Below, in pieces: positions 53,663 to 53,803 of a stretch of 64,000 bases of DNA. The translations under genes and the position numbers were made by a program. The notes below the pieces were generated by a model. That model saw only the letters and a list, made by a program, of their open reading frames with translations. It ran no database searches and was not told where the DNA came from. The DNA is from Dromaius novaehollandiae (lineage: Eukaryota). The number at the start of each line of letters is the position of its first letter. Position 1 is the stretch's first letter. The DNA lies in NCBI RefSeq assembly GCF_036370855.1, contig NC_088135.1, positions 1 to 64,000 of the forward strand, given 5' to 3'.

Positions 53663-53803
53663 CAGGAAGGCGGTGCGGCCGTCGCCGGGGGCGCCCGTCA
53701 CCAGGAAGCGGCCGCCGGGGCCCCGGCGCAGGGCCGTCGCCGTGGCGACGAGGAGGCGGCGCCGGGCCCCGCCCACTGCCCGCTGGGCCGCCAGGAAGGA
53801 GGG
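53663..53803 (-). CDS. Exon 12, NACHT Walker A (P-loop) exon: PSFLAAQRAVGGARRRLLVATATALRRGPGGRFLVTGAPGDGRTAFL. An alternative in-frame acceptor at 53830 would add PGAGPPPLQ.
   Basis: hhhhTGxPGxG(R)T P-loop with arginine where lysine is expected. Acceptor ggggcctccccccctgcag (or ctgcccccctcccccccgcag). Donor CTG|GTGAGGGGG. Phase 0/0. Confidence 0.55.

Follow-up and report, generated by a model that had tools for sequence, protein, structure and literature searches.

The 64,000-nucleotide stretch of DNA analysed here (the window) carries, on the minus strand of positions 53663-53803, a P-loop in which arginine stands where the lysine of a NACHT Walker A motif is normally found. In STAND NTPases this lysine contacts the beta and gamma phosphates. 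The question raised by the locus is whether the arginine is real and occupies the true Walker A position, whether the gene that holds it is intact, and what became of the nucleotide pocket. An earlier note, made from the letters of the window alone, had left three readings side by side: a nucleotide-independent scaffold, a decaying copy, or a single misread base.

Gene identity and exon structure

The window lies almost wholly inside one gene, which is identified by its sequence as the bird orthologue of TEP1 (telomerase protein component 1, also known as vault protein p240). The domains of TEP1 are TROVE, vWA, DUF4062 (a TIR-like NADase), NACHT and WD40. The assignment was made because the best matches are named TEP1, the human crystal chain 11gz_A is matched, the exons are colinear with those of other birds, and WD40 exons follow downstream. 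In the database, the nearest proteins come from birds (Cuculus, Nyctibius, Lagopus, Opisthocomus, Oxyura and Anas) and carry the name telomerase protein component 1. Word-indexed homologue searches returned birds and distant bacterial and protist DUF4062-NACHT proteins only, and no crocodilian or palaeognath TEP1 was among their matches. An exhaustive search was performed with a profile built from an alignment of the bird database proteins only. Its next ranks were occupied by TEP1 of lizard, tuatara, opossum, turtle, caecilian, frog, lungfish, paddlefish, teleost, ray and sea urchin, with E-values for non-bird TEP1 from 1e-115 (lizard) down to 1e-60. The chain of the human TEP1 TIR-like domain (11gz_A) was matched by a bird-sequence profile at E=9e-61.

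The predicted model comprises 16 consecutive exons on the minus strand, from 60005 to 44034, and encodes 717 amino acids with no stop. All 16 are bounded by AG and GT, in agreement with the clean splice sites described in the earlier note, and their order is colinear with the cuckoo genomic locus. Of the upstream TROVE/vWA part only the last portion falls within the window; TROVE exons would lie past 64000. The linker scored 24.2 bits against Pfam DUF5920 (TEP1 linker), below the cut-off of 27. Pfam DUF4062 (PF13271) was found directly N-terminal of the NTPase domain at 56.9 bits (cut-off 24.7). The C-terminal WD40 region by which a TEP1 orthologue is recognized was detected as same-strand tblastn matches down to about 8 kb. 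A paper of 2013 reported TEP1 to be absent in birds (PMC4054807); this older statement is contradicted and corrected by the TEP1 gene of the window. The features of the locus are compiled in Table 1.

Table 1. Features of the TEP1 locus in the window, with predicted exons listed in the direction of transcription
Feature	Position	Strand	Basis or remark
Three upstream exons, vWA/DUF5920-like linker preceding DUF4062 in TEP1	59002..60005 (60005-59881, 59285-59223, 59139-59002)	-	
Five exons, DUF4062/NIR TIR-like NADase domain	54707..57608 (57608-57435, 56924-56828, 56149-56031, 55670-55554, 54824-54707)	-	
Glu codon equivalent to human TEP1 catalytic E1008, second E of SVTELEL	56114..56116	-	Alignment to 11gz_A, numbering of bioRxiv 10.64898/2026.05.01.722283
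P-loop exon of avian TEP1, aa 318-373 of the partial model, PGAGPPPLQPSFLAAQRAVGGARRRLLVATATALRRGPGGRFLVTGAPGDGRTAFL	53663..53830	-	AG acceptor and GT donor, in frame with neighbours
Walker A motif GAPGDGRT	53672..53695	-	Aligned to GxxGxGK[ST] of about 135 homologues
Arg codon CGC at the Walker A Lys position	53675..53677	-	Codon read and orthologous codons
NACHT exon between Walker A and Walker B, AGLVGALQEAPPP...YHFAGARPDQADARLALGHLC...	51455..51660	-	Holds the most conserved NACHT stretch among birds
Walker B exon, ...RRRLVVLVDDADALHEGGEPRDDWAPLELGP	50029..50170	-	
Asp codon GAC (D468), replacing Gly of the NACHT Walker B signature D-G-x-D	50092..50094	-	Derived, common to all birds sampled
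NACHT exon with beta4 strand RVSLVLS and bird-specific GCGRSLPEDQ	49185..49358	-	
Four downstream exons, helical/winged-helix part of the NACHT module	44034..48433 (48433-48341, 48250-48121, 45494-45344, 44170-44034)	-	
Scattered WD40-repeat exons of the same gene	8054..32391 (e.g. 32391-32152, 27112-26924, 8158-8054)	-	tblastn with mallard and lizard TEP1
Tandem arrays of GGGGCCCAGGCGTCCGGGAAA	44175-45276, 48447-49164, 53857-55550, 56153-56822, 60009-60628		Introns
Other intron arrays	52126-53624, 45839-48009, 50167-51409, 43002-44005, 57650-58888		

The Walker A codon

Translation of the minus strand at 53663-53803 gives PSFLAAQRAVGGARRRLLVATATALRRGPGGRFLVTGAPGDGRTAFL, after which a gtgagg donor stands, and the longer minus-strand exon 53663-53830 encodes a product ending in FLVTGAPGDGRTAFL. 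This exon aligns exon-for-exon with TEP1 of cuckoo, ptarmigan, hoatzin and mallard. Its start is probably the upstream cag acceptor at 53830, since the nine additional residues PGAGPPPLQ align with the orthologues. Two in-frame AG acceptors, 27 nt apart, precede the exon (53803/53804 and 53830/53831), and alternative use of them would add or remove these nine residues.

Re-reading of the codon left the arginine standing. It is encoded by CGC (R369 of the partial model) at 53677-53675, about 15 nt below the range 53690-53700 given in the earlier note. CGC differs from AAA and AAG at two or three positions; a one-base misreading was excluded because at least two changes separate it from any lysine codon. 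Cuckoo and hoatzin also have CGC at the orthologous codon, and ptarmigan (Lagopus) has AGG, which likewise does not fit a misread base. When about 140 DUF4062-NACHT homologues are aligned by HMM, the arginine falls on the K of GxxGxGK[ST] and thus occupies the true position of the Walker A lysine. The AlphaFold2 model of the cuckoo orthologue (pLDDT 80) has a strand at 350-355 and a helix at 361-373, with R361 at the beta1-to-alpha1 junction. In this model the arginine of the cuckoo orthologue sits in the first turn of the post-beta1 helix, which is canonical Walker A geometry. Translation and homologue alignment thus bear out a NACHT-type P-loop with lysine replaced by arginine. All six frames of the window were searched for a lysine-bearing P-loop exon (G..G.GK[ST]); none was found. 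A second, lysine-bearing TEP1 copy in birds is possible.

Arginine and lysine across animals

The bird sample for the P-loop consisted of database sequences of Galloanserae and Neoaves plus the window. Arginine was present in all seven birds that cover the P-loop, in the pattern G-x-P-G-x-G-R-[TS]: GAPGDGRT in the window, GAPGSGRT in Cuculus, GQPGSGRS in Nyctibius, GEPGVGRT in Lagopus, GEPGCGRT in Opisthocomus, and GEPGDGRT in both Anas acuta and A. platyrhynchos. The box turtle, the nearest outgroup sampled, has GAPGDGKT. Lysine was found in turtle, tuatara, three lizards, opossum, caecilian, frog, lungfish, paddlefish, teleosts, rays and sea urchin, and also in about 130 further DUF4062-NACHT homologues. 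The exceptions among about 135 non-bird homologues were one R and one S. These sole non-bird homologues without the Walker A lysine are P0104, from a Logan contig (APPGGGRS), and P0135, from an ENA contig (GPPGAGST).

The alignment of orthologues suggested in the earlier note gave R in the birds and K only outside them, so that R is specific to the bird lineage as sampled. Synonymous codons have replaced one another at this site without loss of the arginine: Lagopus has AGG, one transition from AAG, and the window, cuckoo and hoatzin have CGC. Judged from these alignments, the arginine is a genuine substitution common to all birds sampled. Since no crocodilian or palaeognath TEP1 was found, the K-to-R change is dated only between the bird-turtle and the Galloanserae-Neoaves splits.

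Walker B and other bird-specific changes

The Walker B motif of non-bird TEP1 reads hhhhD-G-A-D, and that of the window VVLVDDAD. The signature D[GAS]hDE sets NACHT apart from other STAND modules (bioRxiv 10.1101/2022.07.19.500537); in the window hhhhD is present and the [GAS] position is occupied by Asp. Of the earlier statement that Walker B is intact, the part concerning the hhhhD core holds, but in all birds sampled the signature Gly that follows the Asp is replaced by a second Asp. The motif hhhhD-D was found in all six birds covering Walker B, with the tails DDAD in the window and cuckoo, DDAH in Lagopus, DDGE in hoatzin, DDAG in mallard and DDPA in Oxyura. The second acidic residue of the motif (D at +3) is thus variable in birds (D, H, E, G or A).

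Among 19 non-bird TEP1 sequences, 85 columns are at least 90% conserved. Of these, 53 are unchanged in every bird, and five carry one derived residue in all birds (V136A, F229L, K369R, G468D and K541R). Two of the five are the Walker A change K369R and the change G468D directly after the Walker B Asp. Four of the five changes run AT-to-GC; G468D (GGC to GAC) alone runs GC-to-AT, against the GC bias. Co-occurrence of R in Walker A and D at Walker B+1 was examined outside birds, where the two were separate: P0104 combines R with G, and P0041 and P0155 combine K with D. Because the rare states occur apart outside birds, a compensatory relation of R369 and D468 gains no independent support there; as a compensating pair the two residues are attractive but speculative.

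In the helical part of the NACHT module, the motif YGKKLEE(S/T)xFNNQ(M/L) shows almost no variation from sea urchin to turtle. Birds have G(C/R)GRSL(P/D)xxQ in its place (49185-49214 on the minus strand, aa 538-547), with a deletion of four residues, loss of FNNQ, and K541R.

NACHT homology and structure

A Pfam search with the 717-aa model gave no match to NACHT (PF05729) at E<=0.01. In its place there was only AAA_16, with 25.4 bits against a cut-off of 32.6, and the P-loop region alone gave AAA_16 only, again below threshold. For comparison, PF05729 scored 26.7 in turtle TEP1, exactly at the cut-off, and 53.1 in lizard. The window protein lacks three formal marks of a NACHT: a GK[ST]-type Walker A (GxxxxGK[ST]) with the phosphate-binding lysine, in place of which it has GAPGDGRT, the D[GAS]hDE motif, and a Pfam score at the gathering threshold. 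It aligns almost without gaps to the NACHT of non-bird TEP1 through beta1/P-loop, Walker B, beta4 and the helical domain. By alignment and modelling, the module is the NACHT of TEP1 by descent, with a predicted STAND-type fold.

A sequence search of the PDB found no solved TEP1 NACHT and returned the DUF4062 domain only. The AlphaFold2 model of the cuckoo orthologue was also compared with Foldseek, which placed RPP1 (7dfv_B) at rank 1, MalT (8bob_C) at rank 10 and Apaf-1 (5juy_B) at rank 45, and also listed ORC/Cdc6. The remaining list consisted mostly of AAA+ chains of the Cdc48/p97 type, and all TM-scores were low (0.2-0.3). RPP1 (a TIR-NB-ARC plant NLR), MalT and Apaf-1 are like the window protein in the succession of a TIR-like domain and a STAND P-loop NTPase; they are unlike it in their distant sequence and their canonical GK[TS]. 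Since the TM-scores are only 0.2-0.3, the likeness is architectural only.

NADase domain

A human study of 2026 demonstrated that TEP1 in the vault particle is an active TIR-like NADase, and its authors speculate that NACHT oligomerisation switches the NADase on (bioRxiv 10.64898/2026.05.01.722283). The equivalent of R976 is kept in the window (GERYG), as is the catalytic Glu (Table 1). Human R908 and R954 coordinate an active-site sulphate, and R908A lowers activity (bioRxiv 10.64898/2026.05.01.722283). Their equivalents in the window are Leu (TFLDM, 57569-57595) and Gln (about 56915-56925), respectively, both on the minus strand. Cuckoo has Arg at both positions; Lagopus has Arg at that of R954 and Ala (TFADM) at that of R908.

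Base composition and constraint

The GC content of the window is about 70% throughout, and its introns are filled with repeats. In the coding part (44034-60005), GC3 is 0.96, lysine makes up 0.6% of the residues, and Gly, Ala, Arg and Pro together make up 50%. The corresponding values in other vertebrates are 2.6-6.3% for lysine and 21-32% for the four residues, the turtle being intermediate. A low-lysine composition rich in Gly, Ala, Arg and Pro is a known pattern of hidden, sequencing-refractory GC-rich bird genes and has been attributed to GC-biased gene conversion (PMC8449477); the TEP1 of the window fits this pattern and counts among these hidden genes.

Six lysine columns are conserved outside birds; three of them are Arg in all birds, two are Lys, and one is Asp. 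In columns with K in non-avian sauropsids, birds have R in 17, K in 9 and another residue in 20. As three of the six conserved lysines have become arginine, the Walker A change fits a gene-wide mutational or fixation bias, and the two lysines retained indicate that selection could resist this bias where needed. Evidently, the Walker A lysine was dispensable enough, or its loss was compensated.

Identity between bird orders is 54-64%. The dN/dS values of the gene (NG86) were 0.42 for the window against cuckoo, 0.44 against ptarmigan and 0.64 against hoatzin; they were calculated on confidently aligned tblastn blocks only and are rough at a GC3 of 0.79-0.96 and a pS of about 0.3-0.6. All are below 1, and because values of 0.4-0.6 are high, they indicate weak constraint. 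Within the NACHT, the P-loop 9-mers spanning RFLVTGAPGDGRT have a bird-bird identity of 0.87-0.90, compared with a NACHT mean of 0.74. The other best-conserved bird NACHT stretches are YHFAGARPDQ.DAR.AL, PRVSLVLS and ELRAFA. Conservation among birds is also high at the Gly-rich loop, at the Thr/Ser and at the Walker B Asp. By these measures the TEP1 gene is intact and under purifying selection.

Interpretation of the substitution

The reading that we favour, and hold to be somewhat better than an even chance, is that a bird-specific K-to-R change was fixed in stem birds through GC-biased substitution, and that the pocket would still be under selection, able to hold nucleotide but impaired in hydrolysis. 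The change would have arisen as a single AAG-to-AGG transition on the bird stem, after the turtle split and before the Galloanserae-Neoaves split, and a synonymous path from AGG through CGG to CGC would have followed later in Neoaves. GC-biased substitution may have favoured it while the gene grew extremely GC-rich (GC3 0.96, lysine 0.6%). The nucleotide pocket would remain in use, with the arginine contacting the phosphates, and catalysis would probably be crippled, as it is when the Walker A lysine is mutated to arginine by design. On this view the NACHT of birds could serve the TIR-like NADase as an oligomerisation or scaffold module that holds nucleotide and does not cycle, and control of the NADase would rest on the WD40 and vault context and not on ATP turnover.

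What speaks for a pocket that holds nucleotide and hydrolyses it poorly or not at all is the conservation of the Gly-rich loop, of the Thr/Ser and of the Walker B Asp, which reaches back at least to the divergence of Galloanserae and Neoaves. The proteins RecA K72R and Rad51 K133R bind ATP and hardly hydrolyse it. In the bacterial NACHT protein bNACHT01, K115R abolished phage defence, and K-to-R changes in STAND proteins are usually loss-of-function and not binding-competent (bioRxiv 10.1101/2022.07.19.500537). Since such changes usually cause loss of function, the pocket could also be dead, with the loop kept for folding only.

A bird TEP1 NACHT that binds no nucleotide and serves as a structural spacer or oligomerisation scaffold only, the first option of the earlier note, would suit several of the observations: both hallmark motifs are non-canonical (GR[TS] for GK[TS], DD for D[GAS]), the acidic residue at Walker B +3 varies among birds, the window protein is undetected by the Pfam NACHT model, and dN/dS is elevated. 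We regard it as decidedly unlikely, given that G-x-P-G-x-G-R-[TS] and hhhhDD are still, since the Galloanserae-Neoaves split, among the most conserved parts of a fast-evolving domain, which is unexpected of an unused loop, and that arginine is able to pair with phosphates. At the other extreme, GC-biased gene conversion may have driven AAG to AGG silently, so that arginine replaces lysine adequately and ATP is bound and hydrolysed normally. The K-to-R change runs AT-to-GC and is the commonest fate of an ancestral lysine in this gene (17 R, against 9 K and 20 other), and the remainder of the P-loop and the Walker B Asp are conserved, all of which such a silent exchange would explain. It nevertheless seems unlikely to us: outside birds the Walker A lysine is invariant in about 135 homologues bar two, K-to-R blocks hydrolysis by RecA and Rad51, two other conserved lysines of the same gene withstood the bias, and a second pocket change, G-to-D, was fixed against it. 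The engineered K-to-R change moreover kills the function of a bacterial NACHT (bioRxiv 10.1101/2022.07.19.500537).

The option of a decaying pseudogene copy of TEP1, which had also been raised in the earlier note, draws on the very high divergence (54-64% identity between bird orders), on the dN/dS of 0.4-0.6 and on the older claim that TEP1 is absent in birds (PMC4054807). It is at odds with 16 consecutive exons that have canonical splice sites and neither stop nor frameshift, with the same exon structure in cuckoo, with the 53 of 85 deeply conserved columns kept in all birds, with dN/dS well below 1 and with the occurrence of R and DD in distant bird orders; the P-loop, too, is among the best-conserved NACHT stretches in birds. 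On account of the bird NACHT conservation, the modelled geometry of the arginine, the kept NADase Glu and the intact exons, a pseudogene could practically be ruled out, and the pocket appears to be under selection; the probability left to decay is very small. An error of sequencing, assembly or reading at one base might be suspected in a region that is extremely GC-rich and flanked by repeats, hence error-prone, but it would have to yield a codon at least two changes away from lysine, and R stands at the same position in independent assemblies of six other bird species. Its probability is negligible.

The favoured reading of a selected, hydrolysis-impaired pocket has a bolder variant, which is put forward tentatively and is improbable as it stands. 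The Walker A K-to-R and the new Asp beside the Walker B Asp would form a co-adapted pair, creating a non-hydrolysing or nucleotide-locked module, and the NADase would be regulated without ATP turnover throughout the class. If this were true, the pair would be a natural separation-of-function allele for the question of the role of the TEP1 NACHT.

Comparison with known systems

Bird TEP1 represents a known protein in variant form and no novel type of system. The window protein shares with vertebrate TEP1 the order of domains (vWA-like linker, DUF4062/NIR, NACHT, helical region, WD40) and the equivalents of the NADase residues E1008 and R976, and its exons are colinear with other bird TEP1. It differs in having Arg for Lys in Walker A and D-D for D-G in Walker B, both specific to the birds sampled, and furthermore in the 4-aa deletion with loss of YGKKLEExxFNNQ, in a GC3 of 0.96 with 0.6% lysine, and in Leu and Gln at the equivalents of R908 and R954.

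The engineered mutants bNACHT01 K115R, RecA K72R and Rad51 K133R have the same change at the same structural position as bird TEP1. They are laboratory products that are loss-of-function or hydrolysis-dead, whereas the bird change is natural, fixed across the class as far as sampled, and apparently maintained by selection together with the loop. Some plant sensor NLRs act independently of the P-loop. STAND and NLR proteins with degenerate P-loops resemble bird TEP1 in that the canonical Walker A has been lost and the protein is nevertheless functional. Such cases usually belong to expanded, paired or helper-dependent families of immune receptors; bird TEP1, in contrast, has a single-copy, deeply conserved NACHT of housekeeping type, the loop of which is otherwise preserved. 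Kaur et al., in the wording cited in bioRxiv 10.1101/2022.07.19.500537, refer to 'inactive STAND NTPase domains with disrupted Walker A/B'. A literature search on the P-loop of bird TEP1 found no paper describing the K-to-R substitution.

In the birds sampled, an otherwise conserved TEP1 combines a natural K-to-R change that resembles an ATPase-dead mutation with a second pocket change, which amounts to a natural experiment on the TEP1 NACHT. Comparison of bird TEP1 with an Arg-to-Lys revertant and with human TEP1 carrying K-to-R would tell whether hydrolysis matters for vault association and NADase control. The change would also illustrate the reach of GC-biased substitution on avian dot chromosomes, by which a residue nearly invariant from bacteria to turtles would have been removed.

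Intron repeats

The P-loop exon forms a unique island of about 230 bp that is flanked by two repeat arrays. A unit of 20-21 bp, GGGGCCCAGGCGTCCGGGAAA, forms long tandem arrays in at least five TEP1 introns (Table 1). 'Sequence stuttering' has been reported for genes on avian dot microchromosomes (PMC12954441). The GGGGCCCAGGCGTCCGGGAAA arrays resemble this stuttering, but here one unit recurs across introns, whereas in the reported cases the repeats are local to each intron (PMC12954441). In the other intron arrays the units are of several kinds: CCCATATATGGGCAT-type units (about 28-370 bp), one of 51/103 bp, the 21-bp GCCCCATAGATGGGTCCTCCA, and units of 104-239 bp. At 2001-6000 the GC skew is about -0.72 and the AT skew about +0.68, and the sequence translates to proline-rich, low-complexity PPxPP repeats; this segment, which lies near the gene's 3' part, probably represents one more repeat array.
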